A DNA stretch of 64,000 nt from Amphiscolops sp. MND2022 (taxonomy: Eukaryota). The stretch spans positions 47,122,001-47,186,000 of the forward strand of contig OZ076409.1 in NCBI GenBank assembly GCA_964187785.1, written 5' to 3'. Below, one piece after another: positions 10,422 through 41,840 of this stretch (position 1 is its first letter; every line of letters starts with the position of its first letter). The notes beneath the pieces are model-generated. The model was given only the letters and a program-made list of their open reading frames with translations, searched no databases and had not been told where the DNA came from. The translations under genes were made by a program, and so were the position numbers.

Positions 10422-11063
10422 TTACGCCATTAGAACCCCTTCGCGAGAATGGACCTCGTAGAACATTTGACAAAGATGCAGAGGCGTCCAACAGCAACAA
10501 ACCGATACAAGCAAGTCTTTGTTCTCAGAACCCTCGATTCCATATCGGTTTCGAGTGTCGGTTCTCAATCGGGCGACTTGGAAACAGTACACGATTCTGA
10601 TGATAATAAGCAGCACGTAAGCACTGAGTACTACAACGAGTCCCAAAATCCACAACCCACGAGCAATCGAGCTCAGCAAACACATCACCACCCACATTGC
10701 AGCTCCATACATCATCCACATGAAAACCTTTTTTCCCTGGGGTCCGTTTCTGCTCCGTTCCATGATGCCGTAGATCAGAGCAGCAGGGAAGAAACAGCCA
10801 ATCATACACCAGCTCCAGTCCCTGAAGCAGTCACATAGGCCATGGCGCCATTGGGGGTCCGTGTTTTGTGGGGGCATTTGAAGTGGCACCTGGTTAGGTC
10901 CCACATAGGCGGGAGGAGACATCACCAGATAAGATGTGCCGGGCATCTGGCCTGAAGGTGCACTAGGCGCTGGTGGGGTCATCTGACTCGGGAATCCATT
11001 GGGTGCATAGTAGTCTTGTGAGTTAGCCTCTTGACTCTTGGTACCCGGGTACTCGGCAGCCAT
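10422..11063 (-). CDS. PLAC8/cornifelin-family Cys-rich membrane protein (intronless host gene)
   Basis: 213-aa ORF with a Pro-rich N-terminus, WRHGLCDCF..CMIGCFFP, two hydrophobic segments and R.RYGIEGS..DLLVSVCCC..LCQM. AATAAA signals lie downstream (~10210-10250). Confidence 0.85.
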   Translation of the reverse strand: MAAEYPGTKSQEANSQDYYAPNGFPSQMTPPAPSAPSGQMPGTSYLVMSPPAYVGPNQVPLQMPPQNTDPQWRHGLCDCFRDWSWCMIGCFFPAALIYGIMERSRNGPQGKKVFMWMMYGAAMWVVMCLLSSIARGLWILGLVVVLSAYVLLIIIRIVYCFQVARLRTDTRNRYGIEGSENKDLLVSVCCCWTPLHLCQMFYEVHSREGVLMA

Positions 11064-11761
11064 CTCAAAATCAAACTGTATGACCTTTCACAACCTTGAA
11101 AAAGAGCTGTTGTAAAAACGTAATGTTGTCAAGGTATTAACTGAACGTTCATCCATTTCTAGGTATAAAGGCAAAGCTTTTGATAGAACTTTCTTTTGAA
11201 CTTGAGCTTGGATAGATCGTGAATGAAGAATCAAAAAAGTATAGTATTTTTCATCTTTATCTACTCACAATTCACGTCCTAGAAAATTGGGTCTAAAATA
11301 AGACAAAGTTGCGATGTGACGACCTTTACATGGTTATCATCAAAAGTACTCACTTTTTGAGATTCGATCGTAGTTGAACGTGTAGCTTTTTTTTCAATGT
11401 AACATAAACAAAATTTTGTCTCTTCAAACTTCTTTGTCAGTCACTTTCTCTCGAGAAGTGCTTTTCTGTTGCTATTTTGAGACTCAATTTAATAAAATCA
11501 AATCAAGTGAATTTTAATGTCTGAGTGACCAGTTTGAATTTACTTGTATTTATTTTCATGTAATACTATATAACTCTATATGAAATACATAGTTCAATAT
11601 TGTTGGCTATAGTATCGAAAAATGAAAGCGAGTATTCATGGACCGTCTCCCCTTCGGAGCGTAATAATTATTTAGCAGCCGTTGAGAAAAGCCAGCTTTC
11701 TCTGCCAATTTTTTGTATCAAAGTAAACTATCGAGCTGAATTATCAAGTACTCGCATTTGG

Positions 11762-14132
11762 TGTCACAGTCCGCTCCCGGACTGGGTTGTGGGTGTTTAA
11801 GAATTGGCTTCGGGAGAGGTCACGGCTGCACCGCGAGGTTCGAAAAAACTTACTTTAACTATTAAAACTAACAAATAAACTGTGACTAGGAAAACAAAAA
11901 TACGTCTGATCAACGGAAATTTCAAATGAAACTAGTTACAAAGAATGAGCGCGCTGAAATGATTCTTACATATCCGGTTGAAACGCTTTTGTCACGTCAA
12001 AATAGCAACATTCGCCACCTGAAAACTAAATTAAAATACGTTCTAAAACAAAGAAATCATAGCCTAATCTAAACGAAAACGTAGTCAAAATCATCCCCCA
12101 AAAGAACATCAATCAGATCTAAAATAGAAAATACACCGAGATGACACACCGAATGATTTAAGCCTTTTCTTAGAAAAGCAGCTTAATTACTCTCCGAACA
12201 GCAATTAAATTGGTTTAGGACGTCAATATCACGCTGAGTAAACAAGGCAGCGGAGAAAATAAGAATACATGTATATTTGTCGTCAGTAAGACGCAGACAA
12301 GTTTGAAGATATACCAATTGACGTCACTGCCTCGCATAAGCGTACCAGAAAATCATTCCAATTATCCGCCTATACTAATAGCATTACCAAAAATCATTCC
12401 AATTTACCGCCACTGTGACGTCACTGCTCCGGCAGCTATCGAGAGACTCATTTCTAAAATACTCGTCAGCATTGCCTCGAACTAGTCAAATCTCTATTCT
12501 GCCAAGAAAACTCGTCAACATGACGTTGACAAGTTTATAAAGCTCAAAATTCTGCCAAGAAAACTCGTCAATATGACGCTGCCAAGTTTATGAAATTGAA
12601 CAGAATGGATGAATTTGCAAGATCAGTTAAGGTTTCATCACAATAAAGTTGTTATTATGTTAAAAGGGAATGAATGCAAGCTACTTCAATTCGTAAAATA
12701 AGCATAGAGGAGGTATTCCTATAACTTAAGGTAAAAACTTAAGGTAGATTTTGACACATATAGGTTGATTTAAATCTACGTTAATTAATCGTCTTGCACT
12801 TTTCAACAACAAGGGATTTCCCTTACTTAAGCCATTTTTCCTCTATGGGAGTTCATAGTAAACTAATCAGAAAATCACAGTTTATGCTTTCAACTAAAGT
12901 ATATTTTGTATTGAAAATGTATTTTCATATACTTCGCATTTTGTACTCTATGATATTGAACGCTATACTTATGATCGTAATCATATTTTCCATACTAATT
13001 CATCGTTGCTATCCATTAAATGCGTTGCATTGTCGTTGCTACTTAACAAACGTTGCTGTTAATTTTGTAAAACTTGTCGCACTTGTCGCGACATGATAAA
13101 TTTGCTAATGGAGTATTATTTTAATATCATGATTTTTAATTCTAATTCCAACGAAAGAGTGAGTCCAAATTCATAAAATATCATCTTAGCATCGTTCAAA
13201 TAATCACGCTTTGGGATTAGTCATAGCATTTGATCAAGTTGAATTTCAAAATCAGGTATTTGTTGTTCACGTCAGCGTCATCTTAGCGTCAATTTCCCGC
13301 GAACCAAGGCAGTAAAACAGGGAAGCAGTTCCGGTTTGACAGACTGAAGTAATATCTACTTCCTGCTTGGGAGGAAGCAAAAGGACGCCGGGATGAAATG
13401 ATATGATCATGTTTGATGGCTAACGCTAAATTAAAATTGCCGTGTCTTAAAATTTGACGAAATGTCGACGCAAATTTGGGAACTTCGTGATTTTTTCAAC
13501 AATGAAACAGGAAATGACTAATTGATCGGAGAAAATTAGGGATTATAGTCGTGATCAAATGATGCTGGGAGGGTATAAATATGATAGAATCTGATGATTA
13601 AGGGACTCAGTCTTCTGCAATTGTTGAAATTCAGTTGAATTTTCAATTTCCGCTAAACTCTTAATTCGCTTAACTTTGTTAGAAAATATCTCTGAAAGAA
13701 ATCAATTCTTCAAGATAAAACTTATCTACAACAAAATGTCAACAACAAGAAGCCAGGAAAGAAGGAATGACCAGCAAGGAAGTGATAGAAATGTAAGTGA
13801 AGGTTTTGTTTCACCAATAGGAACGGAAAACCACTGTTCCCCAAACCAGGACGTAGAAGTAGCAGGCCCATCTAGGCCAAAATCGCCCCGAATTGAAAAT
13901 AGCCTCTTAGAGAGCCTAAGAGCCTCTTTGAAAGAGGAAATAACTTCCGAGATTAAGAATCTCCTCATCGAATCTCAAAAGGAGATGTTGGAACTCCTTA
14001 AACCCAAAACAAGGGAGAATATTAGAGATAACTTCGATGAAGAAACGGAGAACGAAACTAGAAACTTCTATACTCCGACAAAATCAGTTAGAATAAATTC
14101 TACGCAAAACGACCCGAACATAAGTCGTAACA
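11762..14132 (+). repeat. 5' LTR (2371 bp)
   Basis: TGTCACAG...GTCGTAACA, colinear with 25449-27819; about 40-45 substitutions counted by eye and no indels seen. Confidence 0.97.
13571..13611 (+). promoter_or_regulatory. Putative LTR promoter (TATA box and Inr-like TCAGT)
   Basis: GGGTATAAAT at 13571 and TCAGT at 13607, about 130-160 bp upstream of the gag ATG at 13736. Confidence 0.5.
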
Positions 14133-15174
14133 TGGTGACAGGAGTTTTAAACGACTCCACCAATCAACCCAAGAGAGCGAAGGTCCGATCCCAAAGCCAA
14201 CCTCCATCAAATGAACGCCCAACAGCAGCGCGAACATTGTTCGCCCCAGACAAAAGTAGCACCACGACACTACCCATGCCAAAAGCTCTAACGGCGTCAC
14301 TCTCAACTTTTGACGGGAAATCCGAAAAATTTGAGCTTTTTGAAGACCTCTTTAGGAACAATATCAAGATGTATCCACACCTTACAGAACTATAGAAGAT
14401 AAACTACTTCCACTCCCTACTCAGGGGAGACGCCTTGCAAGCCTTTTGCAACATCGAAGACCCCAAGAAAGACTCACTAGACGAGATTATGACGATATTC
14501 AAACGACGATTTGGGGACTATCTGTCGATGGCAAAAGCTAGATGCGAATGGGACGCGCTAAAATTTGACCCCTCGACACAAAAACTCCACGAAGTTCTGG
14601 ATGTACTCCAGAAAACTGCAAAAGAAGCCTTTGGATCAGAGGCGCAGCAGTTCATAGACAAGGCTATATACGCCAAAATGCCAGACCACGTAAAAAAATA
14701 CTAAATCGCGCATACCTCGAAGACAAACCTTACAACGACATAGTACTCCACATAGAGTGAGAAATGCGTCTCAATGGACTAGGAGCACCAGACGAGGTAA
14801 CGTTAGTACCCCTGAACAAAATTGAACCCGCTCAAACAAAAACTGAACCCAAACCAGCGGAAACCACCGCTCAGATCACTAAAAAAGGGTACTGCTTTTA
14901 CTGTAATAAATTCGGACATTATAAAGCTGAATGCCGAAAAATGAGAAGGGACAAATGGATGCAAACCCGCAGAAACAACGGGCCGAGCAATCACAGTGCA
15001 GGCAAACCGCCCAAATGCGACACTTGCGGCAAACCACACAAAACAGAAGACTGTTGGAACGGAGCCAATGCCGCCAATGATCCACGACCCAAACGTCACA
15101 ACACACAAGAACGTAAAATGGACACCTCTGCCTCACAGCCAACGAACCACACAGAAGATGAATCAAAAAAATAA
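13736..15174 (+). pseudogene. gag: Gag with two zinc knuckles; starts inside the LTR; disrupted
   Basis: TFDGKSEKFELFE capsid-like start and knuckles CFYCNKFGHYKAEC and CDTCGKPHKTEDC. Lesions: stop at 14393, frameshift near 14700, stop at 14758. Confidence 0.9.
14133..14145 (+). promoter_or_regulatory. Primer-binding site, tRNA-Leu-like
   Basis: TGGTGACAGGAGT directly follows the LTR; one mismatch to the complement of a typical animal tRNA-Leu 3' end (TGGTGTCAGGAGT). Confidence 0.75.
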
Positions 15175-18100
15175 TTACGCCGCGCCTGCGCTTTGGGGAA
15201 ACAGTAGACGCGAGGGCATATTCTCCACAAGAACCCCCAACAACGTATACCAACGACACGACTGTAGAGTGCTCAGGCACCCCATCAGAAGCCTGGCTGA
15301 GACAACAAGCAATCGCATCTATGAAACGACACCCGCCACAAGAGAATCAAAAAGCAACACTTCCAAACGATCAGGATTACAGAAACGATTACCGACATCA
15401 CAAAAAACTACCCCCCCAACCAATCATCACCACCAAAGAACCCGCTGCTCAGACCCAAAGAAACCCAGTTGAAAACGTCCACGACGTCCACACCTCGTCA
15501 AAAATGTCTGAGGAAAATACTCACGACTCCACCAGGTCACCTATCTTCCACGAAAACTTCCCCACCTTCCTCAACTCAATTAAAGAATATGTAACTGAAA
15601 AAGATGGTAACACTTATATACCACTCCACTCAACAATAGTCCTCAAGAACAGAAGACGAATGCTTTACTTGCCACTGGAATTTGGCGAATTAACAATGGA
15701 CGGCCTTGTCGACTCAGGAGCGTTCATCAATGCCATGTCATGGTCCGATTACAACGCCATCAAAATGGACAGAGATAATTGTGTCATAAAGGAGTATCCA
15801 CAACCCCCTTTCAAGATCGAATGTGCGAACGCACAACTAGAGCAACCAATTGCCACTGCAGACATTCAATTCAATATCGGAACATACACGTTCACCGACA
15901 CCTTTGACATACTATCAAAGACGTCATTCCCCATAATCGGACTGAACTTCATGAGAAACCACCAAGCAGTGATAGATACAGCCAATGGAACCATCACCTT
16001 CCCCCATCTCGAATTGACATTAGCCATGACAGATGAAAAGAAAAATTGTAACCCCAAACCGCTCCAAATCATGGCTGAAGGGCACCAGACGTTGCCACCA
16101 CAACAAACAACAACCGTTAATGCAATAGTCATAACCACCAATGCAATCGACATCACAGGGGCAGTACAACCGCTACCACAGTTTGATGAAACAGCCACCA
16201 TCATCGTTGCACCAGCTCTAGCCACAGCTCACAACAAAGGAATCAACCTCCGAATAGCCAACTTGACAGATTTCCCGCACACCATAAAAAACCACAACAA
16301 ATTCGCTGAATTACAAATCCTGAGGCCAGAGGACACCAAACAAATACGACCTGTAGACGTCGCAACGCTGACCACCTTACAAGATCCAGATGACACGCAC
16401 ATGTATGTAAATGAGCTCATGAAATCCACAAACGATGAACAAAATGACGAAAACCTCTGGTTCCCAACACCCGAAAACCCGGGAAATGAAGTTGAACACA
16501 CGCCAATACAAAGGCGAATATTAAAAGAAATCAGAGAACTCATAAAGAAAGAACAACTTGATCCCACCAAAGATCCAGAATCAAGGAAATAGTTCCTTGA
16601 CATGTTCAAATGGGAAGGATCACAGATTGAGGGAAACGACAAGAAACAGCTGGAGCAAACGATAGTTGAATACAACGACATCTTTGAGCGTCACAGACTC
16701 GACATTGGTATCAATAATAGCTTCAAAGTGAAACTGACGCCAAAAGACGAACGACCCATATACACACAGAGCCTGCCAGTGCCAATCAACCTCACGGAAG
16801 ACCTAACAGTCGAACTGGCACTAATGCATAGGTATGGTATAATTACGACATTACCATTTTCAAAATATGCCAGCCCGATTTTCGCACAACGCCAACCAAA
16901 CGGTAAACTACGTTTACTGGTCGACCATCGAAAAATCAACGCACTGATATCGGAGGATTACATCAACAACAACCACCCAGTCAGCACCCTGTCAGACGCA
17001 GCTCAACACCTAGCTGGGAAAAGGTTATTCTGTAAATTAGATTGCTCTCAAGCATATCACTGTCTGCAAATGGCTGACCAGAGATCAATCGAAATGCTGG
17101 CATTCAACTTCGCAAGCAGAACGTTTGCATATAAACGCCTGGCACAAGGACTGAGCAGAGCATTGTCAGCATTCTCTAGTTTCATGAGAGAATATTTGGA
17201 CAAAGTAATTAAGGCTGACCAATGCGCGCAGTATGTGGACGACATTGGAATAGCCGCTAACTCCGTGACGCAACTGATACGAAACATCCGAGCAGTCTTC
17301 GAGTGCATTAGACAAGCAGGACTCAAACTATCCATCGACAAATGCCATTTTGGAGTAACCGAGGTCGAATTCCTTGGAAGAACGATCACCCCACAAGGAA
17401 TCGCCCCCAAGACCACAAAATCCAGAAATTCTTAGCAAATGTACGATTCCCGAAATCAAAGAAACAAGTACAGAGATACATAGGCTTTGTCAACTACTAC
17501 CGCAACTATATCCCGCGGTTGTCAGAAAAGCTACTCGGTTTCTACGAACTACTGAAAGCTGACAAACAAATCAAAGTCACAGAAGAACTGCTAGACCACT
17601 ACAAAGCGATCAACGCAGCACTAGCGGTAGCATGTGGACTAGCCCTCAAACAACCAATCACAGGACGACAATACGTCCTAATGACGGATGCTAGTTTTCG
17701 CGCCTCAGGTTATGCGCTAATGATCGAAGAAGAAAACGACAAAAAACTCAACTCCAAAAAGAAAAATTTTGCGCCTGTTGCATTTGGATCAAAAGTATTT
17801 TCACCTGCGCAACTGAAGATGTCAATTTATTGCAAAGAATTTCTGGCAATCTACCACGCATTTTTAGAATACATCCACATATTGTGGGAAACAACCCTAC
17901 CAACCCTCGTAATGACTGACAATAGATCAGTAACGAGGTTTTTTCAAACAAAAGCAATTCCCCCCTACCTATGGAACGCATGCGACTACGTACTACAGTT
18001 CAATTTTCACATCATGCACGTAGCAGGAACGCAAAACACCGCTGCCGACTTCTTATCGAGAATTGACCTTAACCCCAAGGAAAAAAATGAACTAAAAATC

Positions 18101-19909
18101 CGAAACGATATTACGATCCAACCAATACAGGTAAACCTTCAATCGACAGACGTCGCAGATGAAGAACAACTCTTTTTTCTCCCAGAGGAAACGATTGAAA
18201 CAGAAGAGGAAATTCTTCTACAAAAGGAACAAGCAAGACAAAATGCACGAGATGAGGAGACGACGAAAATAAAGCTGTCAATAAAAGAAACAACTCCAAT
18301 CCCAATAAACAAGGCATCATACACCTTTGGGGCAATCAAGGAAGACGGACGCATTAGAGTTGAACAAGACGCAGATTTAGTTTTCAAAGCAATCAAGAGA
18401 AAACTGATCTGCAAAGAACACGACAAACACCTACTACAAACAGATCCGAGAGCCAAACGCCTCCTAGTCCACGAAAACAGACTCATAGTCAAAGATGGGG
18501 TACTAATGCGCAAATACTACGGAGAATGCGGTCAAGTCACACACAACCAAATACTAATCCCTGAGCATTTGATTACAGAACTCCCGAAAGCAATCCATGG
18601 ACAAATGGGAAAACACCCAGGGATCACAAAAATGATCCAAGAATGTCGATCAAAGTATTACTACCCTGGCTTAGCAAAAACAATCAGACAGTGGGTAATG
18701 CAATGTGAAGACTGCATCAAATACAAACGAATCAGCAACAGCCAAATCAGACCAAAGATGATCAAAAACACAGAACATGTCCTGGGCCCGGAAGACATTC
18801 TCGAGATTGACATATTGCCGAATCTACCCAACTCTGCAGGATACCAAAACATCGTTACGATGATTGATGTATTTTCACGCTACCTATTCTCATACCCAAC
18901 ACAGAACGTCACAGCAAAGACAATTGGACGATGCATTGTCGACGTCATGACCAGACATGCATATCTGCCAACTTTAATTTTGTCAGATAAAGGCTCTCAA
19001 TTCAGATCAGAAGTCGTCGCAGAAATAATGCAAATACTCGAAATCCAAATTAGCCATGCGTCCACGAAACATGCACAAACGATTGGCATCCTAGAAAAGA
19101 CACACGCCTCAATCAAAACTGCATTAAAAATATCGACGGGTGAAAGACGTTCAATGTGGCACAAATACGTTCAGATCGCAGTCATGAACTATAATACAAC
19201 GTATCATGAAACCCTAGGCTGCGAACCATCTACAGTATTCCACGGACGTATACCCTACAACGTCCTGGATTTAAAACTAGGCATCAAGCCAAAGTGGAAA
19301 ACTACGCTAAATTCAGATATAGCAGAGCAGCTACAACAACAAATCGATGAAGTGCGAGCGACAGCGAAAGACAACATCATGCTGTCTTACCTCAAATACA
19401 AAAAATATCATGACCGTAAAGCGTCGGCAGCTCCGCTCAAACTAAATGATTATTGCTACATCCTCAATCCGAAAGCCGACAATCAATCGACAAAGTTTGC
19501 ATTTCAAGATTGTATCTAGACGGGACCGTACATAGTAATCAACAAAGTGCTCTCAAATAAAAATTACACGATACGAAAAATTGGCACACGATATACACAA
19601 ACATTACACAGAATTCGCATACGACCTTACGTGCCAGAGCAACGCGTGCCTGACGTCACAGTACGAGCAAACGAATATCTTCCCGATCCAGACGTCAAAG
19701 TGTCACACAACGAGTGGTACGCGATATCGTGGGAAATGGATTTCGGAAAACAGATTGATGAACACGAAACATCAAAAAGTACAGAAAACAACCAACACGC
19801 AAAGATACAAGAAGTGACAAATACGAATGACGAAGCCACGACGTCTCAAATGCCAAGAAACCAAACCGATGACATAAATGACGAGGCGCCGCCGTCTCCG
19901 GATTTTTGA
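15162..19909 (+). pseudogene. pol: Pol polyprotein: aspartic protease, reverse transcriptase, RNase H, integrase; disrupted
   Basis: LVDSGA (protease); LAQGL and YVDD at 17232 (RT); TDAS..KEFLAI..TDN..ADFLSR (RNase H); H..H..CEDC plus IDIL/SDKGSQF/E (integrase). Stops at 16590 and 19517; frameshifts near 17405 and 19540. Confidence 0.95.
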
Positions 19910-20344
19910 AATCTTACTACAGACATGGGGGATAACCCATACATACGCCGCCCCCCACCCTTGAAAGTCCACCTATTTCCCCAAGATCACCGCCTACAGT
20001 TGTCGGATATAACCCGAGAAAAACAGCAAAGTACAATTTGGGACCTAATCCTAAACCTAATGCTAATTCTGACTTCAGACGAGTCGACGCTATAACTACG
20101 ACTCTCTAAGAAGGAAAAGATAATATCTGGAGTCCAAATCGAACCGATTTGACGATTTTCAATTATAGACATACTACAGCCTGGATAATTTTCTCTCTTT
20201 CCTTTTTTCAACCTGAATGACTCCAGCCGAACTCTATACGTCCGGTTTTCTTCTAATAAAATATACAGTCCAATATACAATTACAGAAACAAATAAATAA
20301 TATAAACTACGCTACGAAAGTTTGGAAATCCAAGACGACAAAGC

Positions 20345-23300
20345 TCACTTCTTCTTCGAACGGGACACATCATCTTTAACAGCTGATTGTCTAGACTTTT
20401 TCTCATCCTTCTTTGACGACGACTCACCAACCTCTTCAGCATCTTTCTTTCGACCAAGTAAAGAAGCTATGCTCCGATGTACTTGCACCTTACTCAAACC
20501 AAACGGACTACAAGTACTAGTGGCAGAATCAGCTGGGGCAGAAACGGTGGAAGCAGTCAGTCTCTCACACTGAGAAGAAGACTCTTCGCCATCAACAGCC
20601 GCAGCATCACGACTAGATGTTCCCACACCAAGGGACTGCCCAATGACACCACCTCTCTTGCGACTGACCTGTTTATTGAACAGATCTCTATAACGGTCAA
20701 CAAAAGCAGATTGATTCTCACCACATATACCTTCCCACGGATTGAAATCAGCAGCAGTCATGAAGGAACTAGCAGCAGCGATTGATTTTCGAACCTCGCC
20801 CATAGTGAACTTTGTAAAAAATGATCCCAGCTTAAACCCGGGAGACATAACGCAGCTCTGCACTCCTCGAATACACGTTGCAACCACACGTTCAGGCACT
20901 CTACAATCACTGAGGGCCAATGTCAACTGCAGGGAAGTCAACCCGTGGCTTCAGGACGACAAGGCAGCACAACTTGAACACCCGACATAACGACCTGCGA
21001 GCTAAGAATCCGTAATCGTCCAGCAAATACTGACGAACGTCGTCGATAGCCTCGGCACAGCTGTTGGAACCAGCGTGTCGTGCCCGAGCATCCACAACAA
21101 ACGAAGCGTACTCTTCCACAGCAGACTTTGATTCCAACGACGACACAACACCACACCGCTCCAATACTCGGATAAGCTTACGAAACAAGTCCGTCATGTG
21201 ATGGTCGTCTCCCTCCAACAAAAGCTCAGGGCAAAATGCATAAACACCTTGAGAGAAATCTCCTGTCACAGGCTGCTGTCCCAGTATGACACAAACAAAG
21301 CGATCGACGAATCTGAGGCACTGATCCCGAAGCGCACGGCCCTCACCACTCTTGTGACGTCGCAGAACAGCACCAAAGTCATGGCTTCTGAAGAAATCGG
21401 CGGAATCAATACACTCAAAATCATCAAGCTTCTGCGGGTCCATGTACTCTTCCCACGAATTCAAACTTGGAAGAGAACCAATCTTGTGACTACGCGATAA
21501 CAGGCAGTGCACGAACTGACAAATTTCCATATAGGCATGAAAGGCGTAGTCAGCTCGACACGACAACTGTTTCTTAAAGGTGCAATGATCTAAAACACAA
21601 TACCTAAATCATACCTGACACAATACTGACGGATTCCCTTAACACTACCACCCAATAAACAACATACAACTACACTCTGCCGGTAAAGTCCAAATATCAA
21701 GAAACTGTACTCACAAAGATCGAGGACGTGCAGGAGAAGTCCAAGACGCAACTCACTCGTAGACTCCGAATAGATATGCCAGTCAGTGCCACGCATCTGC
21801 AAATAAGAATGCAACTCATAATATATCAACTTAGCAACACAAACGATGACAACACAAAAGAGAGAGAGAGAGAAGAAAAACAACAAAACAACAAAAGAAA
21901 ATCAAACAAACATGAATTACCCTGCCAGCTCCGGTTTTGAAATGACGAGGGACAGTATGTTTGACGAAATCCTGCACAGATGTCCAAACGGCAATCAAAT
22001 CAGCGACGACATCACGCAAGTCTGCAAACGCAACACGTCCAGCGACAATGCATCAGCGAAGACAAGGTACACCTTCGCACCACGGCTCTTGCACAGCCCC
22101 ACGTAATCGGAGCATGAGGAAGTCAATCATGGCAGTAGTCTCCAAACCACCAAACACTTCCTGATGGGCCAGCTGATAACAGTGCAAGAACACGTCCACA
22201 CTGAACTCACGGTACACGACGAACTCACGTACGTCCACTCGATTGTCACTCAGCACACGCAACAGCGTCGGACTACACCCCTGACAGCACAAAGGCATCT
22301 GACAAGAGGAAGTACCGTCAATGACACGCGACAATCCGGCCAACTCAGCCTCAGGAACACGCTGCCCCACTGATTCGACTCGCACACAGACACTCATTAA
22401 CGTATGATCATCCCAGGTTTGGACGATGCAATTATGATCTTCACCACTCTCGATGAAGAACATGCTGTATTCCCGAAAAGCAGCGATCCGGGACATCAGG
22501 GAACGTAACACACGCGGAAACAGAGCTTGGCAAATCAACGACTAAATTACAACACCCGACGTTCACTACCCGCACAACACCAATACCCAAAGACGACAAT
22601 AAAACTTACAAACTTCCCATTCATAACCTGAATGTTCAACACACTAAAAGACAAAGAAATGCAGTACTCACGAGAGACTCAGGACGACTCCAATATAGGT
22701 TGTATAAGGGACTGCCAGGACCAAGTGTCGCTCGAAAGCACCCGAAAGCACTTCCTCCAAATCGCAACAACTCAATGAGGCAGTTAATCATCGACATCAA
22801 GGGCACACTTGAGTTTATTTGGGCACAGGCAGGAAGCAGGTCTTCAAGAAAACTGAAAACCTCGTTTTTCCCTTTGCTGGGTCGACTACGATATTCCTCC
22901 AATTGTATCTCACTCAAAGTCATCGGGTCCATCAGGCGATTATACACTGGCAAACCGTTCTGAACTCGATACGTAACATCAAGCAGCCAATGTCGTTTCC
23001 CGAAGAAATGCCTGCTGAACTCGGCTGCACCCCGCGATTCCCTTGAAACGTCTCGTTGACATATCATGCAATGGAACAGCTTGTCGGAACCAGTACTGGA
23101 ACCACTGACGAAGAGCTCGTATATAGGAATCCCAGTAACCATATCCCGACGAAGACGATTGCGAGGGCTATAAACGCGCTTGCGACCCCGCTCAGCTCCC
23201 TCGAGAGTCGACTCCATACGACTGAGCAGCTCTTCAAAACCTACAACAAATTCACCAACATAACATGCCTATCCCTAACTATTTTAAAGAATGACAAGGC

Positions 23301-24349
23301 AAAAAGGAGAACAACCGAAAAACAAGCAACTGATTCTCAAAACGAAAAGAAAGACCTATCAATCTCATATGCAAATCCCAAGACAAACACCAAACACAAT
23401 GGATTTCACTTACGGGCAACAAAGGGGTCCACTGACACGTTTTCAACATCCATCGATGGACGCTGAATGCTCACTCGTTGCGATGAGCCAGGCTCTGCAT
23501 CCTCCTCCCCACTGTCAGCGAAGGAGAAACGAACGACTGGAGTGGCAACACCAGGTACCAGCGACACACATTGCCCTGACGTCGACTGAACTCCGGAACC
23601 ACCCTTGTCAGGAACCACCAACCGCACTAAAACGGCAAATAAAACTCTAACACCCAACAGAGAAAAAAAACCCCAACCACAAAAGACCCATACAGACAAG
23701 AGATACATTATCGAATCAACTCACCATGCTTAGACCCCGTGAGGCGATCATCATCATCGTCCGTTGTCTGCACTTTGTGCAAGAAGGATGAAAACCGAGG
23801 CGAAACAGTTTTCTGACTCTCGACAACATTCTTTTGGGTAGGGGGAGACCCCTCACCTCCGCGAGTGGCAACTGTCCCAGAAGGATTAACACTTCTAGCA
23901 ACAGCAGCCAGAGGAACATCTGAATCAGAACAAGTTGGAGATGGATTGGGAGCAATTGCGGCGCCAACAGTGACAGAAGAATCGCCAACGCGATGAGTAG
24001 ACTCAGCAATGGGTTCAATTGAAATTCCAGAAAGATCAGCGGGAAGGGAGGTTTCGAGATGGGAGACAGAAGCCCTAGCCAAAGGAGAAGAGAACGTTGG
24101 ATCTAACAACAAATAAACATCCCATAACGACGCGTCAGAAAATCTAAGCTGTGAAAATATAAAACAGAAAAAGCCTATCTGTAGAGAATATTATTCACAA
24201 AAGCTTAATGGATGGAGGGATGAAAACTCACCAGCAGCAGGCTGCAAAGCAGGGGCATCGGCTTCACTATCTCGAACGTCTCCTTCCGAGAAGAGGAATT
24301 GGGTATCGTGACCGCTCTGGAAGCCAGAAACACGGCGCGAGGAAGACAT
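20345..24349 (-). CDS. Spliced antisense cargo gene (7 exons): zinc finger plus degenerate hAT-transposase-like body; one stop and one frameshift
   Basis: Phase-compatible GT-AG exons: 24349-~24232, ~24102-23725, 23626-23414, 23240-22672, 22541-21921, ~21796-21715, ~21589-20345. Contains CMIC..RHFFGKRH. Confidence 0.7.
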
Positions 24350-24398
24350 CGTTCAACAGCAATCTGGAAAAGAGCAATGATGAAAACAACAACCAAAC

Positions 24399-24655
24399 TG
24401 ACGTCACCATAACGGTGACAAAAATGAAAGTTGGCTAATTACCAACGAAATTGACGTCGGCATAACGTCGACAAAAAAGATTATCAGGGTTAAGAAAATA
24501 ATCCTATATCCTAAAATGACGTCATCAAAACGGTGACAAAATCAAAAAGTTAGCTAAGCTAACAAAATGACGTCAGCATAACGTTGACAAGTTTGGCTAA
24601 GTAAATTATTTCAACTTACAGCCAATAAAAACGCAATGTCGACATAACGTCAACA
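24399..24655. promoter_or_regulatory. Cluster of five palindromic TGACGTCA/GTCANC-ATAAC-GNTGAC sites in a divergent promoter region
   Basis: Copies near 24399, 24452, 24517, 24567 and 24637, between the antisense ATG (24349) and the sense ORF (24753). Confidence 0.5.
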
Positions 24656-24752
24656 TCTGAAGATTAAAAAGATTGAAATGATTGAACAGCCAATCAGAAT
24701 GGAGGGAATTTTCCAATATTCTCCTTAATCCAAATTAAAGCTGAAATTCAAT

Positions 24753-25545
24753 GTGGAACAATTAAAATACGATCAACAGTCGAAGAAGAAAAGCCAAATA
24801 AAGAAGATGATCAATTTAATGGACATATATGAACTAATTGACATTTCATCGTCGAGTGAAGAAGAAGGAGAAATCACAAGATCCTCTACCCCACTGCCAG
24901 AAAATAACGAGAAATACCCAAAAATAATAGTGGAGATATTAAACTAGTCAGCGGAAGCCACAGCAGATGAAGAAGAATTTCTAGACCTCTCCTTAAATTC
25001 GCTGGAAACCGAGTGTAAGAGGATGAATCTCAGTGAATCTTACACGAGTTTTGAAACAGTTGAATCGGGGCAATACCCTCAGTCAGAAAGCGAAGAAGAA
25101 ATTGCGGACTCGCCAGAAAGCCCTGATCCCTTGCTGAACTCAGACGTGTTTGTAGTAGAGAAACCTTGCGAAGAAGAAATGTCCTCCATGACTAGCAGTA
25201 AAGTCGCTGAATTCATAAGACAGGCAACGGAGGATGATGCATGCTCCTATTTTGAATCCCCCCGCGGACCTCTGAGAGTTTGGGGAGAACAGAAGAAAGA
25301 ATCGCTAAACGATCTAGATGAAGAAAGAGGCCCGGCGATACTGCTCCCATCCAGGGACCAAGCAATTGACCCTAATGTCTACGAGCTACAATACCCCTCT
25401 ACCAGCTGAGGTTCCCTGGGAGGACGATAAGACCTATGACAGTGGCCCTGTCACAGTCCGCTCCCGGACTGGGTTGTGGGTGTTTAAGAATTGGCTTCGG
25501 GAGAGGCCACGGCTGCACCGCGAGGTTCAAAAAAACTTACTTTAA
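24753..25545 (+). pseudogene. Acidic accessory ORF running into the 3' LTR
   Basis: Frames 24753-24947 and 25023-25409 are in phase and separated by one TAG. A shifted frame then crosses the LTR boundary at 25449 and stops at 25545. Confidence 0.45.
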
Positions 25546-27819
25546 CTATTAAAACTAACAAATAAACTGTGACTAGGAAAACAAAAATACGTCTGATCAA
25601 CGGAAATTTCGAATGAAAATAGTTACAAAGAATGAGCGCGCTGAAATGATTCTTACATTTCCGGTTGAAACGCTTTTGTCACGTCAAAATAGCAACATTC
25701 GCCACCTGAAAACTAAATTAAAATACGTTCTAAAACAAAGAAATCATAGCCTAATCCAAACGAAAACGTAGTCAAAATCATCGCCCAAAAGAACATCAAT
25801 CAGATCTAAAATAGAAAATACACCGAGATGACACACCGAATGATTTAAGCCTTTTCTTAGAAAAGCAGCTTAATTACTCTCCGAACAGCAATTAAATTGG
25901 TTTAGGACGTCAATATCACGCTGAGTAAACAAGGCAGCGGAGAAAATAAGAATACATGTATATTTGTCGTCAGTAAGACGCAGACAAGTTTGAAGATATA
26001 CCAATTGACGTCACTGCCTCGCATAAGCGTACCAGAAAATCATTCCAATTATCCGCCTATACTAATAGCATTACCAAAAATCATTCCAATTTAGCGCCAC
26101 TGTGACGTCACTGCTCCGGCAGCTAGCGAGAGACTCATTTCTAAAATACTCGTCAGCATTGCGGCGAACTAGTCAAATCTCTATTCTGCCAAGAAAACTC
26201 GTCAACATGACGTTGACAAGTTTATAAAGCTCAAAATTCTGCCAAGAAAACTCGTCAACATGACGCTGCCAAGTTTATGACATTGAACAGAATGGATGAA
26301 TTTGCAAGATCAGTTAAGGTTTCATCACAATAAAGTCGTTATTATGTTAAAACGGAATGAATGCAAGCTACTTCAATTCAAAAAATAAGCATAGAGGAGG
26401 TATTCCTATAACTTAAGGTATTAACTTAAGGTAGATTTTGACACATATAGGTTGATTTAAATCTACGTTAATTAATCGTCTTGCACTTTTCAACAACAAG
26501 GGATTTCCCTTACTTAAGCCATTTTTCCTCTATGGGAGTTCATAGTAAATCAATCAGAAAGTCACAGTTTATGCTTTCAACTAAAGTATATTTTGTATTG
26601 AAAATGTATTTTCATATACTTCGTTTTTTGTACTCTATGATTTTGAACGCTATACTTATGATCGTAATCATATTTTCCATACTAATTCATCGTTGCTATC
26701 CATTAAATGCGTTGCATTGTCGTTGCTACTTAACAAACGTTGCTGTTAATTTTGTAAAACTTGTCGCACTGGTCGCGACATGATAAATTTGCTAATGGAG
26801 TAATATTTTAATACCATGATTTTTAATTCTAATTCCAACGAAAGAGTGAGTCCAAATTCATAAAATATCATCTTAGCATCGTTCAAATAATCACGCTTTG
26901 GGATTAGTCATAGCATTTGATCAAGTTGAATTTCAAAATCTGGTATTTGTTGTTCACGTCAGCGTCATCTTAGCGTCAATTTCCCGCGAACCAAAGCAGT
27001 AAAACAGGGAAGCATTTCCGGTTTGACAGACTGAAGTAATATCTACTTCCTGCTTGGGAGGAAGCAAAAGGACGCCGGGATGAAATGATATGATCATGTT
27101 TGATGGCTAACGCTAAATTAAAATTGCCGTGTCTTAAAAATTGACGAAATGTCGACGCAAATTTGGGAACTTCGTGATTTTTTCAACAATGAAACAGGAA
27201 ATGACTAATTGATCGGAGAAAATTAGGGATTATAGTCGTGATCAAATGATGCTGGGAGGGTATAAATATGATAGAATCTGATGATTAAGGGACTCAGTCT
27301 TTTGCAATTGTTGAAATTCAGTTGAATTCTCAATTTCCGCTAAACTCTTAATTTGCTTAACTTTGTTAGAAAATATCTCTGAAAGAAATCAATTCTTCAA
27401 GATAAAACATATCTACAACAAAATGTCAACAACAAGAAGCCAGAAAAGAAGGAATGACCAGCAAGGAAGTGATAGAAATGTAAGTGAAGGTTTTGTTTCA
27501 CCAATAGGAACGGAAAACCACTGTTCCCCAAACCAGGACGTAGAAGTAGCAGGCCCATCTAGGCCAAAATCGCCCCGAATTGAAAATAGCCTCTTAGAGA
27601 GCCTAAGAGCCTCTTTGAAAGAGGAGATAACTTCCGAGATTAAGAATCTCCTCATCGAATCTCAAAAGGAGCTGTTGGAACTCCTTAAACCTTAAACAAG
27701 GGAGAATATTAGAGAAAACTTCGATGAAGAAACGGAGAACGAAACTAGAAACTACTATACTCCGACAAATTCAGTTAGAATAAATTCTACGCAAAACGAC
27801 CCGAACATAAGTCGTAACA
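25449..27819 (+). repeat. 3' LTR (2371 bp)
   Basis: Direct repeat of 11762-14132, followed by the TSD TTTGG. Confidence 0.97.
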
Positions 27820-28565
27820 TTTGGTATTGACGTAATTTTAGAATTACGTCAATACCAAATACGAGCACTTGATAATTCAGCTCGATAGTTTACTTTCGCA
27901 ATTCCTCTTGTACAATTACATTTCATTTGAAAGCTGAGACCATCTGTACAAACGTGTATACTGCAAAGAAATGCACTTCTGAGATTTTTTGTTCTCTAGG
28001 TGAAAGAGATCCAATATAAGCAAAATGGCTTCCAGTTTTGAAGTAATTATTTCACAACTTCGAATTCATACAAGATTTTAACTCTTGTATGAATTAGAGA
28101 GCTCTTCTGACATTTCAAAACTGTTTTAAGGAACAAATTTACAAGAAAACATCTCTAAAACAGTGTAGCAACCCAGCTTTAGACATCTTGGAATTTTGGC
28201 AAGATTATTGAATTTTCCCGTTCACCTGGGTAATTCCACCACAATCTTTAGAAATCCTGGAAATCTCGCCAAGCTTACCAGGTGTCTCGGATTTCGTGGC
28301 AAGATCTCGAGATTGCTTGAATCTCGAGTTTCTCATTTCAGTTCTCCAATTGACAACATAACGTACACAGGGAATATGCTAGGAGAATACGACATAAGAA
28401 GGTAGAATTCGACGAAATAAGGCCATTATCAGTTGAATGCTAAGCCAATGAAAAAAGGGTTACACGCTAGCAGATATGGATTGGCATATCAACAGTTAGC
28501 CTTGAGAGAACTAGGGAGAACTCCATGAAAATATTAGTACAAATTTGGAAAACTTACATATAAGA

Positions 28566-31311: not shown

Positions 31312-34300
31312 TCATTTTCTGGCATCGCTGACCTGCATATTCCTCACTTTGTCCTTGATATCTTGCCACTTTTGTGCATGAGGATACCTCTTCATTGCTT
31401 CCAAACAGACATCTTGACCGGGCAGACGCCCTTCCATCATTTCTTTTCGAAATTCCTTTCTCAACGCCTTTTCTTGATCTTTCGGCCATTGTCGTCTGGT
31501 GGCACCTTTTGGCCTTCCAGCAGTTGTTCTCTTCTTTTTCTTGGGCCTTCTTTGTTCGGGTTCTTCCTCAGAACCATGGGAAACTTCATCTGCTTGGAAT
31601 GAAGCGTCATCGTCTGACTTTTCTTCCTTGTCGTTGTCGTCGTCATCGTCATCGTCATCTTCATCAGACTCATCCTTCTTCCCTTTCTCTTTGGTTCGTT
31701 GTGATGTGCTGCGGCTTGAAGTCGCCTTCGAGGAACTCGGAAGATTTGAATCAGCAGGAGTTTCTACTTCTTCACCTACATCCTGGAAAGTTCAAAATTT
31801 GGGGAAATTATGACACGAAGACGTGATTTTGCTTTGCAGCTTTTCGAAGAGCAAACTTCTCAAACACCGTATGCTACTATTTCAACAAAGAACTCAAGAA
31901 ACTAAATTTCGACACTTGTTCAATTGGTAATCCAATTCGAAGAGAAATCAGTATTCTCAAACACCGGGCGTTGCTATTTCAACAACAAATTCAAGAAACT
32001 AAACTCCGACACTTTTTTAACTGTTAGTTCAATTCGAAGTGAAATCAGTATTCTCAAACACCGGGCGTTGCTAATTCAACAAAGAATTAAAAAAACTGAA
32101 CTCCGACACTTTTTTAATTGTTAATTCAATTCGAAGTTAAAAGTATTCTCAAACACCGGGCGTTGCTATTTCAACTGAAGCTTTTAAAATTATTGAAAAA
32201 AAATTAAAATTGGAATTCAAACTTATCAACCTATTCGCAATAGTGTTTGAAGTCAAATTAGTAGAAATTCTCACCGAATCGTCAAGATTCAAAGTCGGCT
32301 GGAGTGTGTCAAGGTTCTCTAGATAGGCGTCTTTGACCTTGCCTTTGTCCGCAATGTATAATAGTTTGGTCATTTTTGCCAGGTTTACAGCATCAGTGTG
32401 CTTCCTGTAGTACTTGTCGTGAACATTCAGGTCGTGTCCCAGGAAGTCGGCCACCCAAACTCTTTGGTTTTGTGGTAAATCCAAGAACTGGGCTGCAGTG
32501 GCAAGATACTTGCGGAGCTTTGTAGATCGGAACACTTTTTTGTCTTGCAGCTTAAACTCTTCAGCGTATTTCCTCAAAACATCGATGCTTCTGTAGAATT
32601 GTTCGCCTCCCTCTGTTTGGAAGAAGTAGTTGTCACTTTTCAGCTTATCGTCATTAATCATGATGTCTATCACTTCTAGTGTTTTAGGTGGAATCAAAAC
32701 GGGAACAAATTTTCCACCTTTCCCAGGCAGTCGCAGCAACGTGTAGTACTTTGCGAACATCATTTCAACTTCTGTGAGCTTAAAAAGTTCGTAATCCGTT
32801 GTTTGTGCCCTCTGTAAAGCCAGACTTCTTTGGAGAATCATGTCTTTTCGTGTTACACCCGAAACTTCGCGATCTCGCTTCTTATTAAAACTGACAAGAT
32901 CAGCAATCACGATTTGTTTCATTTCGGCGTAGTTGTGAGTCGTTTTGGCCAGCAAACCCGAAATTTTTGCCCCAATCTTTTCTCTGAAGCGCATCATATC
33001 CGAAGTTGGAATGACAAGGTGTGTCGACTCGTTCTGTTTCTTCAGCATCCTGTTAAAACAATCAAAACATACAAGGCCAATATGAAAAAAAAACTCATTT
33101 TGGAAATACGGAATTAAAGCTGAAAACATTGAAAAAAGGTTGATGCTATCCGGATATGCACCCACGTGGGATTGTCATATTTCACGACAGCTTCCCTCCT
33201 GCACTGTTGCCGCAATGGAAGACTCAACATTGTCAATTTGACGCTTAAGGGCGCGACATCCGCTCAGGCATAGTACCGAGAACGGAATTAAATGAAAGAT
33301 ACTACAAAAATTAAAAAGTTGTCAAACGACGTACATCTGCATTTTTCTGAAGTGCAAAATCATTTTTGTTTGTTTTTGTTGAATTTGAAAGTCAGTATGA
33401 GACGTTTTTCGTGGTGACATGAAGTGTTAAAAAATAAAAAACTAACTCATATTTTGCTGGTGCCGAAATTGCTGCCCACTCACTATCTAGAATTTTCAAG
33501 AACTCTCTTGCTGTTTCCGATATTGACTTCTTTTTCCACATCCAAGCCTGGTTGCGTAAGAACTGAGCAGCTGTTTTCAGAATTGATCCCATTTTAATCC
33601 TGTAGGACTTTTCGAATGTCATAACAGCTTCTTTCACTCTTGGCCACATTTCGGGATTAATGACTTCAATCAAGTATGAGCAATTGAGTTTGTGTACAAG
33701 CTTGGCCATTGTTCTCATTCTGTCGTTGATTTGAAGGTAACCCTCGTCAGCTTTTCTCTTATCGAAGTACCACTGGCCAAGGTATCGTATCAGAGGATCA
33801 CGCCTTGCAATATTCCCATATTCATCATGTCTCATTCGTGTGAAAACATATTGTTCAAATGGGGTGTCTTTGGTAGCTTTCACTTCGAGCATCAATGCAA
33901 ATGTAGCAGCCTTGATATTTTTTCCTGTATTGCTCAAAGCTATCTTTCCACTTGCTGGACAATCTGTTTTATGTCGATACATTGTTTTTTTCTGGAAGAA
34001 ACCGAGACAACTTGGACAAGGGGCAAAGTCATAAGCAGATGGATTTTCAGCTACAGTTGGATCCCTGGCAACAATCAATTTGCTCTCGAAGTTTTGGGTC
34101 TCGCTGCACTTCTTGAAAACAGCGATGTTGTATTTATAGAGACCTTCATAGACAATCAAGTGAGTGAGATTGTCCTTCTCTCTCCTCAGTTTTTTAAGTT
34201 CGGTCTCAGTTTGAACAGTTTCCCTGCCTTCTTCAAGATCCTCAATTTCCTTGTTAATCCTTTGAAGGTTTAAAACTCGGAGTTCTTTGCGATGAAATTT

Positions 34301-37300
34301 ATCCACATGACGTGTCAGTTTTTGCACCATAGTGGCATTTTCTGGTTCAGTGAAGGGACAGTAAGGACAACATTTTGTTTTTCTGTGTTTATTCAGGGCG
34401 ACTTGAATTTTGATCTTCCGAAGAAATTTAGCATTGAATTGGCATTGTCCTGTTTGTTGGACGTACTTCTCCATTACAAGTTCCATTTCCTGATCGTCCA
34501 TTTCTTGGGTATCCGTTGAAGTTGTAGCTGACTTGTAAGAACTTTCACTAATCTGACTGATACCTTCTGCATTCAAAACAACTTCTTTGGTTATTCCAAC
34601 CAGAGGACCGCATTTCTTCGTTTTTGATCTTGTTCGTTCCAATGGCTCATCTTCCGATGGGTATTCGCTGCTCACATCCTCATCGTCCGTGTCATCATCA
34701 CTTCCGGGAGTGAATCGATCGCTCGACGAGGTGGACGAATCTTTACTAGAATCTTCAGTTGTTCCACTGGAACATGGGGGCTGCGATTCTTCGTCGCTTG
34801 AGCATTGTTCGGAGACGGATTCTTCGCTTTCTTCAGCTTCCGGTTTCGGCTGTAGGTATTGACGGCCCTTGGCGAGCAGTTTTACAGCTCTGGTTGTTCC
34901 CTTCCTGGGTGTCAACTGCAAAACAACACACTAAGTTGAACATCACTATCAACCAATTGAAATGTTTTCGGTAAAACTTCAACAGAAAAACAGCAATTTT
35001 CATTAGCAAAACCTTAGAAACTCCGCCTTCAATTACTTTTCGCTTTATTCCAAAACATCTTTTTTCTACAATTGTTTTTTGACCAGTAGATGTCTCACGA
35101 AAGAAACCAAGGGGCTCCGGCATTCTGAATTTTGGAGAGCTAGGTCGAACATGCGACGTATGTTCGACCAAATGTGATGAACTTTTATGCGAGACGAAAA
35201 ACGACTACTGAAAAACTTTTGTGGTTTTTATCAAGGAAAGTGAACCAAAAGAAAACTAGGTTTACTTTGTGAGGTAGAGAAGTATCCGGAGTTGAAGAAC
35301 TTTCTTCCTTTTTCTGGTATTTGTTCGTCGTCAACCTTTGAACAGATTCCTCGATAGCTGAGTCTATGTTCTTCGGCTTCTTGGCTTGCGGCTGTTTCGT
35401 TGATGTCAGGGTCGGCTTTTTGACAGCCTTTTTTTTTATCTCCACTTGCTGTTGGTTGTTGAAGCGGTTCAGCTGGTCTTGATGCTCCGCAAATGGTTGA
35501 TGATCTCACTGGTCCACTTTTAGAAGACAACGCTGCGACGGACGGCTCATTCGCGTCAATGACAGATGCCAGTTCCGAAGCATGTTCATCAGCAACATCT
35601 GGCTTGGCTTCTCCACTTTTAGCTGGTGGTTTCGGATCAACTATCTCGCCGACAGCTGGCTTGGCTTCTCCACTTTTAGCTGCTCCTTTCTGAGCAAGTT
35701 TCTCTCCGACAACTGGCTTGGCTTCTCCAGTTTTAGCTGGTGGTTTCTGAGCAACTTTCTCTCCGGCAGCTGGCTTGTCTTCTCCAGGTTTGGCTGGTGG
35801 TTTCTGAGCAAGTTTCTCTCCGACAACTGGCTTGGCTTGTCCAGGTTTGGCTGGTGGTTCCGGAACAACTATCTTGCCGACAGCTGGCTTGGCTTCTCCA
35901 CTTTTAGCTGTTGGTTTCTGAGCAACTTTCTCTCCGACAGCTGGCTTGGCTTCTCCACTTTTAGCTGGTGGTTTCTGAGCAAGTTTCTCTCCGACAACTG
36001 GCTTGGCTTGTCCAGGTTTGGCTGGTGGTTCCGGAACAACTATCTCGCCGACAGCTGGCCTGGCTTCTCCACTTTTAGCAGGTGGTTTCTGAGCAACTTT
36101 CTCTCCGGCAGCTGGCTTGGCTTCTCCAGTTTTAGCTGGTAGTTTCGGAACAACTATCTCGCCGACAGCTGGCCTGGCTTCTCCACTTTTAGCTGGTGGT
36201 TTCTGAGCAAGTTTCTCTCCGACAGCTGGCTTGGTTCCTCCAGTTTTAGCAGGTGGTTTCTGAGCACCTTTCTCTCCGACAGCTGGCTTGGCTTCTCCAC
36301 TTTTAGCTTGAGGTTTTGAAGTAAGTTTCTCTACGGCAGCTGGCTTGGCTTCTCCAGGTTTAGCTGATGGTTCCGAAACAACTATCTCTCCGACAGCTGT
36401 TATGTCTTCTCCACTTTTAGCTGGTGGTTTTGAAGCAAGTTTCTCTCCGACAGCTGGCTTGGCTTCTCCACTTTTAGCAGGTGGTTTTGAAGTAAGTTTC
36501 TCTCCGGCAGCTGGCTTGGCTTCTCCACTTTTAGCTGATGGTTCCGAAACAACTATCTCTCCGACAGCTGTTATGTCTTCTCCACTTTTAGCTGGTGGTT
36601 TTGAAGCAAGTTTCTCTCCGACAGCTGGCTTGGCTTCTCCACTTTTAGCAGGTTGTTTTGAAGTAAGTTTCTCTCCGGCAGCTGGCTTGGCTTCTCCACT
36701 TTTAGCAGGTGGTTTTGAAGTAGGTTTCTCTCCGGCAGCTTGCTTGGCTTCTCCCCTTTTAGCTGGTGACTTCGGAGCAACTTTCTCTCCGGCAGCTTGC
36801 TTGGCTTCTCCACTTTTAGTTGGTGACTTAGGAGCAACTTTCTCTCCGACAGCTGGCTTGGCTTCTCCACTTTTAGTTGGTGACATAGGAGCAACTCTCT
36901 TTGCGACAGCTGGCTTGGCTTCTCCAAGTTTTTTTACGACAGCTGCCTCGGCTACTCCAAATGTAGTTGGTTGTTTTGAATCATCCTTTCCTGAGGCAGT
37001 TGCTCTGAGTGCCACCACGCATTTCGAGAAACCTTTTACTACACCGGCTGTCTGTTCCGACTTCTCATCTTCGGTTTTTGATTCGGAATCAATATTCTGT
37101 GTAATGTTGGCTTTCGATTCTGGTTTTGACGTTTCTATTTTCTGGACCTGGTGTTTTAAAACAACTCTACTTCTGGTCTTCGGCTTCTCTTCCTTTGTAA
37201 CAGCTGATTTGTTTGTAACGTAGAATTCTTTTGTAGAATTTGGGTTTTCCAAATTAACTGGTGTCTCACTTTCGGGAACCGCGGTGTTTTTTCGCCACTC

Positions 37301-41400: not shown

Positions 41401-41840
41401 GGTTTTCTGAAGAGCAAGAAAGGTAGGGTTTTGTCACACAGAGCAGTTCAACCAAAAATTAACATCAATAAAGCCAATGAAATATGAACTCTACATTATA
41501 ATAAATAAGTAAACCTTTTAGTGTTCAACTGAAACCGTTCGATTATGTTTTAGAATTTAGGAAGAATGAAAAAATGTGCTCAATGACAGTGTTGCTACTA
41601 GGAGAAAATTCAATCGAGAAAATCTAATACTTTGCGGATTTATGGTGTCTACTTTTGATCCGGAAAAAACATTAGTGAGTCAAAATACTGTGATTCATTG
41701 TTTTAGCGAGAAAAAAAGAACAAAATTTTGAACCAATGTTGTCAGTTTTGAAAGCAAAGAGTTCTCAAGAAATCAATGTCAGCTTCGAATTGAAGAAAAG
41801 CCAAAGTTTTCATTGGTCTGGTCACGCTCCCATTTTCTGT

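Follow-up and report, generated by a model that had tools for sequence, protein, structure and literature searches.

An antisense, intron-containing gene, probably of hAT transposase ancestry, as a family-wide component of Gypsy retrotransposons with branch-specific palindromes in Amphiscolops sp.

A 64,000-nucleotide stretch of the genome of Amphiscolops sp. MND2022 (assembly GCA_964187785.1, contig OZ076409.1, positions 47,122,001 to 47,186,000 of the forward strand; hereafter the window, in which positions are counted from its first letter) contains a long terminal repeat (LTR) retrotransposon of the Gypsy type that carries an intron-containing gene antisense to its own coding frames. This gene is a real, selected and family-wide component of the retrotransposon lineage. 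Two observations are new: a different spaced palindrome is repeated along the whole element in each of the two main branches, and the same gene is also present in a DNA transposon of the EnSpm/CMC type. Judged from sequence, the best reading is that of an antisense accessory gene encoding a likely descendant of a hAT transposase that lost its catalytic acids, whose product would bind the palindrome of its branch and keep the element transcribed; we hold this reading tentatively, with confidence slightly short of even.

The gene occupies the minus strand (24349-20345) between the integrase frame, which ends at 19519, and the 3' LTR (25449-27819). A preliminary description, made from the letters alone, had placed seven minus-strand exons with six phase-compatible GT-AG introns in the slot of an env gene, and this structure was confirmed; the introns are 98-173 nt long and have phases 1, 1, 1, 0, 0 and 1. 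Exon 1 (24232-24349) contains the ATG, exons 2 (23725-24102) and 3 (23414-23626) encode a low-complexity N-terminus, exon 4 (22672-23240) encodes an invariant C-x2-C...H-x5-H zinc finger followed by a helical part, and exon 5 (21921-22541) a presumed RNase H-like core in which no acidic residue is conserved. Exon 6 (21715-21796) has 82 nt in 20/20 copies examined, and exon 7 (20345-21589) encodes a helical body, presumed to comprise the hAT insertion and C-terminal domains, and a basic tail. Conservation of the splice sites was scored in 20 other copies aligned to the window copy. Donors 1, 3 and 4 are GT in all 20, donors 2 and 5 in 19, and donor 6 in 17/17 copies that have intron 6; acceptors 3, 4 and 5 are AG in all 20 and acceptor 6 in 17/17, and acceptors 1 and 2 have AG at the aligned column in 14/20 and 17/20 copies, being shifted or lost elsewhere. 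Between subfamilies, intron interiors are 44% identical, compared with 68% for exons 4-7.

Open spliced frames of 1082-1114 amino acids were detected in six of the 20 copies, drawn from four subfamilies. The window copy itself is a broken gene, in which exon 4 lacks 18 nt, an in-frame stop interrupts exon 5 at spliced residue 589, and the frame of exon 7 shifts near 20910-20950. The earlier proposal that the protein ends at SLCRVFKLCCLVV was therefore not upheld, since this apparent end is the frame break of exon 7 and open copies continue for about 190 further residues. An env-like open reading frame (ORF) was also considered and rejected, because an env ORF lies on the sense strand after pol and the gene here is antisense and spliced. 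Reverse transcription spares only introns that run antisense to the genomic RNA; the gene must accordingly have an antisense transcript of its own. In one subfamily (3/20 copies) intron 6 has been precisely lost; as an antisense intron cannot be removed via the genomic RNA, the likely route of this loss is recombination with spliced antisense RNA or its cDNA.

The distribution of the gene was analyzed by searching its own genome with exon 7, which gave 150 scored matches among 6703 candidates, down to 59% identity, and with a second branch (B), 25% identical to that of the window copy (A), which gave 135 scored matches among 7554 candidates. The gene is antisense to Gypsy pol in all 20 loci fetched from the exon 7 set, in 3/3 added loci, in 10/10 branch-B loci and in 17 of the 20 loci obtained by searches with distant relatives. 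As a control for selection bias, 20 of 150 integrase matches were sampled at about even steps and chosen by integrase alone; 19 of them have exons 4, 5 and 7 in antisense orientation, and the remaining copy has exon 7 only. Position and strand are kept in branches whose reverse transcriptases (RT) are 73-96% identical. Neither terminal inverted repeats (TIRs) nor an 8-bp target site duplication (TSD) was found around the gene, the longest match between inverted repeats flanking it being 11 bp. Absence from other copies, or a nested insertion with its own TIR and TSD, had been named beforehand as what would detach the gene from the LTR element, and the copies showed neither. A profile of the last exon retrieved 903 representatives at E up to 0.001, the ten looked up being ENA proteins without a name; for two of three tested representatives the best matches in the Amphiscolops genome were only 29% and about 40% identical, which shows that the gene family is also present in other genomes. 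Part of a second gene copy, of branch B, lies in the window itself (190-1405, minus strand), with a finger exon 50% identical to that of the nearest fetched copy.

The ratio of nonsynonymous to synonymous substitution rates (dN/dS), proposed in the preliminary description as a check, indicated purifying selection. Among the 21 pairs of seven subfamily representatives, synonymous sites were mostly saturated, and in the unsaturated pairs dN/dS was 0.028-0.045 for exon 4 (four pairs), 0.027-0.17 for exon 5 (12 pairs) and 0.073-0.135 for exon 7 (four pairs), whereas the same DNA read on the opposite strand gave 0.97-1.42. The gene evolves faster than pol (dN 0.14-0.28 versus 0.02-0.04) and behaves as a swappable cassette. 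Trees of RT, integrase and exon 4 from 14 copies mutually reject each other (approximately unbiased (AU) test, p 0.003 or less). Two elements share 92-100% identity across LTR, gag, pol, promoter and an acidic ORF, but 65-71% in the antisense exons, and the odd allele of this pair is 91-98% identical to the gene of a third element. Similarly, in copies whose integrase is 95-98% identical to that of the window, gene identity spans 51 to 87%.

A region upstream of the gene (24390-24700), likely the antisense promoter, is 76-98% identical between subfamilies, exceeding the identity of the exons. It contains five copies of the 17-bp spaced palindrome GTCR-N-CAT-N-ACG-KYGAC (at 24403, 24456, 24521, 24572 and 24638), which recurs in the 5' LTR (12514-12530, plus strand) and the 3' LTR (26201-26217), giving seven matches in the window versus 0.01 expected. 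Its outer part, GTCR-N9-YGAC, occurs 4-9 times per element in 16 branch-A elements (0.4-1.2 expected), nearly always in LTR and promoter, and only 0-2 times per element in ten branch-B elements, whereas GGAC-N5-GTCY occurs 12-23 times per branch-B element (0.2-0.8 expected) and 0-1 times in branch A. More general forms of both motifs were found by an unbiased scan of spaced palindromes. CG-N9-CG was enriched in 16/16 branch-A elements (52-125 versus 23-33 expected; pooled, 1625 versus 325-567 at other spacings), and GAC-N5-GTC in 9/9 branch-B elements (16-39 versus 2-3 expected; pooled, 243 versus 12-83). Neither palindrome stands out in the opposite branch, or in 267 kb of flanks (CG-N9-CG 421 versus 288-398; GAC-N5-GTC 49 versus 22-52).

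These palindromes extend into the gag-pol codons. When the branch motif was counted in the longest gag-pol frame and compared with 200 synonymous-codon shuffles, the count exceeded all shuffles in six of seven branch-A copies (the seventh had 22 versus a maximum of 23) and in two of five branch-B copies. The 11-base spacing of CG-N9-CG matches no codon period, and the bases within it do not pair, so that no RNA hairpin is formed. The spaced palindrome that recurs throughout an element, in LTR, promoter and gag-pol codons, is thus particular to its main branch, although elements within a branch are not independent and the two branches count as two events. This pattern is the trace expected from a protein that binds DNA as a dimer and is particular to its branch.

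Three of the 20 distant-relative loci, which have no nearby pol, turned out to belong to an EnSpm/CMC-type DNA transposon carrying the same intron-containing gene. Copies of this transposon lie at C2:29.30-29.33 Mb, C2:56.4, C1:35.4, C3:8.3 and C6:60.05 Mb of the same genome. This carrier is 35.3 kb long, with 37-bp TIRs starting CCCCAG, copies 98-99.8% identical and a 2-bp TSD in three of four copies with both ends read. Its transposase ORF (654 amino acids) matches DUF1258 (E 3.9e-9), with Transposase_21 and DUF4218 below the cut-off, and two weak SET-like ORFs are also present. The gene has a branch-B finger, shares the intron after the finger exon, and nests in Gypsy branch B (Shimodaira-Hasegawa-like approximate likelihood ratio test support 96); the AU test spoke against monophyly of Gypsy B (p 0.043, with the root placed at the midpoint by assumption). 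The trees thus favour a transfer from Gypsy to CMC, but only just. One CMC copy at C6:60.03 Mb lies inside a branch-B Gypsy element (RT 72%; 20 GAC-N5-GTC in 6.7 kb), and such nesting could pass the gene between classes.

The protein consists of about 250 low-complexity residues, the C-x2-C...H-x5-H finger, a body of about 600 residues and the basic tail. In line with the preliminary description, which had noted a CxxC..H..H finger and no clear catalytic motif, the C2H2 ligands are invariant in 26/26 copies from all branches, the first Cys having been lost in one further copy. No acidic column of exon 5 is invariant across 26 copies, the best D/E column reaching 23/26; the protein is thus unlikely to cut DNA, whatever its origin. 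The fingers of branches A and B differ systematically. Pfam gave weak C2H2 matches for 14/27 fingers, including KIN17/matrin/jaz types, and none to zf-BED. An active hAT transposase or hAT element was rejected, as there are no conserved DDE triad (triad positions assigned by eye), no TIRs and no 8-bp TSD.

We consider hAT ancestry of this protein probable, chiefly because two non-overlapping parts of it, taken from two branches only 25% identical, gave hAT domains in hAT order by ESM Atlas language-model features. With exons 6-7, Dimer_Tnp_hAT appeared in 21/30 matches (score 0.93), and with the finger and next exon of a branch-B copy, clusters of DUF4371, DUF659, ZBED1_RNase-like and zf-BED were obtained (0.92-0.87). 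On visual comparison, F-C-P-E-L-L, E-E-Y and the helix that precedes K-P-R correspond to the motifs D-P-R, E-x-E-x-Y and L-S-I-P of hAT transposases, and the helix order of the exons 6-7 model (pLDDT 88.9) agrees, again by eye, with the Hermes alignment. Several results weigh against this ancestry. The Atlas shared-feature counts (160 and 156) are below the 170 typical of true family members, and shuffled proteins attain an Atlas score of 0.9 in 4-10 of 100 cases. No match was obtained by Foldseek with the exons 6-7 model or by PDB profile searches, and no hAT match by Pfam among window ORFs, exon products and relatives. HHalign scores against nine host hATs were not above those of shuffles; against 120 Tip100-like hATs, 126 collinear columns had a probability of only 0.63%; and with 60 rows the score was 19.3, below the best of 125 shuffles (23.5). 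For the hAT/ZNF862-type layout suggested earlier, the positive evidence thus consists of the Atlas features and motif threading by eye, the profile and structure searches having been negative.

The same negative HMM, HHalign and Foldseek searches would be expected if the gene were a selected accessory gene of other descent, either a gene captured from the host or a protein with its own fold; this seems rather improbable, given that the two protein parts independently gave hAT domains in order and that the helices of the model fit the Hermes alignment by eye. Far less credible still, with next to no probability, is a hAT transposon that inserted by chance in the window copy and was passively carried. 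The broken state of that copy would fit such an event, but the presence of the gene in 19/20 integrase-selected copies, its constant place and strand across RT-diverged branches, the absence of TIR or TSD around it and dN/dS values far below 1 rule it out.

As to function, hAT transposases dimerise, and the preferred reading runs as follows. A spliced antisense mRNA would be made from the conserved promoter at 24390-24700; the protein, a transposase body without catalysis, may dimerise so that two fingers read two half-sites, and would bind the branch motif in the LTRs, in its own promoter and along the element, acting in trans on every copy within its branch. The effect would be activation or protection from chromatin silencing, and not removal of 5-methylcytosine (5mC). 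CpG hypermutability is absent from LTR pairs (transitions per 1000: branch A, 11.3 versus 9.3; branch B, 8.1 versus 11.2), which speaks against a demethylation target like that of VANC; together with a CpG observed/expected ratio of 0.92 in the flanks, this makes histone-based silencing or plain activation the more likely target. The earlier suggestion that a captured gene may act as a DNA-binding regulator has thereby gained a candidate target motif, although the regulatory role itself is still inferred.

Alternatively, the palindromes could be read by another factor, such as a transcription factor of the host, Gag, integrase or the product of the acidic ORF, the antisense protein being, for example, an RNA-binding suppressor of small-RNA silencing or an integration tether; we regard this as fairly unlikely. 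The split between motifs coincides with the deep RT split, so the motif pattern does not name the binder. In the 35 kb of the CMC carrier GAC-N5-GTC occurs only nine times, about as often as at other spacings, which argues against a strict link between protein and motif unless the protein changed its target or acts on Gypsy elements in trans. Moreover, the branch-A promoter motif overlaps TGACGTCA, a host CRE-type site; the finger weakly resembles KIN17/matrin/jaz types, some of which bind RNA; and the swapping of alleles 65-71% identical suggests an arms race with the host. On the other hand, apart from gag/integrase no element product other than the antisense protein showed a conserved finger here, and cassette swaps were observed only within a motif branch, even if sequence distance alone could limit swaps. 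It is also conceivable, but improbable, that the protein binds the family motif and represses, as a self-limiting factor capping expression or copy number. The branch-motif evidence fits such a repressor equally, the motif clusters in the gene's own promoter as for an autoregulator, and inhibitory roles of antisense transcription are described in the accessible part of PMC7264820. The family is, however, both large, with 6703 and 7554 first-look candidates, and young, with LTR pairs mostly 98-100% identical, and selection would more readily write sites into its own pol codons if binding is of benefit to the element.

The carrier in the window (11762-27819) is a single Gypsy element of about 16 kb with Ty3/Gypsy hallmarks: protease, RT, RNase H and integrase in Gypsy order, LTRs with TG..CA ends, a primer-binding site and a short TSD. 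Its LTRs (5' LTR, 11762-14132, plus strand; 3' LTR, 25449-27819, plus strand) are 2371 bp each and 98.1% identical, and the target duplication TTTGG borders the element at both ends; a 5-bp TSD was present in 13/16 Gypsy elements examined. The gag-pol region (13737-19519, plus strand), encoding protease, RT, RNase H and integrase, is disrupted and spread across several frames. In both branches gag begins about 400 bp within the LTR, in the window copy in the 3' part of the 5' LTR, and reads through the primer-binding site (window 13737-14395), whose position (14133-14150, plus strand; length approximate) begins with TGG, as also found after the LTR in relatives. The acidic sense ORF before the 3' LTR (24948-25409, plus strand) was matched in 20/20 integrase-selected copies and extends into the LTR in branch B. 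It moves between backbones jointly with the first 450 bp of the LTR (11762-12210): in one pair the two are 97% and 99% identical, and identity is otherwise 53-83% beyond the next segment. The insertion site is a small palindromic sequence with 43-bp arms, 95% identical (11720-11761 and 27820-27896).

Elsewhere in the window, the repeat-rich region 31000-63400 is probably another large transposon with chromatin cargo. It contains a SET ORF (40927-41433, E 1.4e-6), JmjC/cupin ORFs (41841-43877), an ORF of 57-bp repeats (35231-37339), many copies of a 16-bp motif, and an ORF (32149-33174) that resembles a tyrosine recombinase and that had no Pfam match. A Cys-rich ORF of 221 amino acids (10422-11087, minus strand) resembles PLAC8/cornifelin.

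Antisense extra ORFs between pol and the 3' LTR have been described in plant and fungal Gypsy elements as Retand TRP28 (PF04195), maize Grande gene23, rice RIRE2 and fungal Boty (PMC11963269; PMC7264820). According to the accessible parts of these two sources, DNA binding is predicted for TRP28 (PMC11963269), a transposable-element origin has no support (PMC7264820), and what such antisense genes do for LTR elements has yet to be settled. The present gene resembles these ORFs, as far as they are described there, in slot, strand and presence in nearly all copies, in products that are nuclear or predicted to bind DNA, and, for Grande gene23, in a promoter of its own, which is likely here. As an accessory gene of the aORF-3R kind it was found in 19/20 integrase-selected copies, and it differs in its six conserved introns (the word intron occurs 0 times in the available text of PMC11963269), about 1100 residues, likely hAT origin and branch-specific motif. 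PF04195 had no match among window ORFs, 12 exon products and 142 relatives.

Other parallels concern transposon regulators. VANC binds motifs enriched in its own VANDAL family (PMC5735166), and the partial text indicates that it likewise belongs to an element-encoded family with a variable low-complexity part and an enriched short motif for each family. VANDAL is, by the same text, a plant DNA transposon with tandem-repeated motifs in non-coding parts that act on DNA methylation, whereas the system here is a retrotransposon with palindromes also inside codons and no CpG-decay signal; the likeness considered is one of workings. The Spm regulator TnpA, among other regulators of such descent, arose from a transposase (bioRxiv 10.64898/2026.08.24.746577); according to the portion available, losing catalysis turned the enzyme into a sequence-specific regulator. 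TnpA acts for the same DNA transposon family that gave rise to it, whereas in the present case the probable donor, hAT, and the carriers, Gypsy and CMC, belong to different superfamilies. As in VANC and TnpA, the family motif is enriched in the encoding element in Gypsy, but not in the CMC carrier.

Domesticated hAT genes of hosts (ZBED, DAYSLEEPER, ZNF862/FAM200) also combine a finger with a hAT-like body; these are fixed host genes, whereas the antisense gene is mobile cargo in hundreds of copies. A literature search, with subscription papers, Repbase notes and preprint supplements outside its reach, listed no LTR element whose intron-containing gene derives from a transposase, nor one with a self-motif of this kind.

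It is possible, though somewhat doubtful, that an animal LTR lineage tamed a DNA-transposon enzyme into an anti-silencing factor and recoded its whole genome, including pol codons, with the site of this factor, that protein and site then co-diverged between branches, that alleles were exchanged as cassettes, and that the gene later changed class once more, moving to a giant EnSpm/CMC transposon with SET-like genes. Each branch of the protein family can be paired with a precise candidate site, CG-N9-CG for A and GAC-N5-GTC for B. If true, sequence-specific self-activation would extend from plant DNA transposons to animal retrotransposons, regulators would be traded among three transposon superfamilies, and the two branches would provide natural pairs of DNA-binding proteins with differing specificities.
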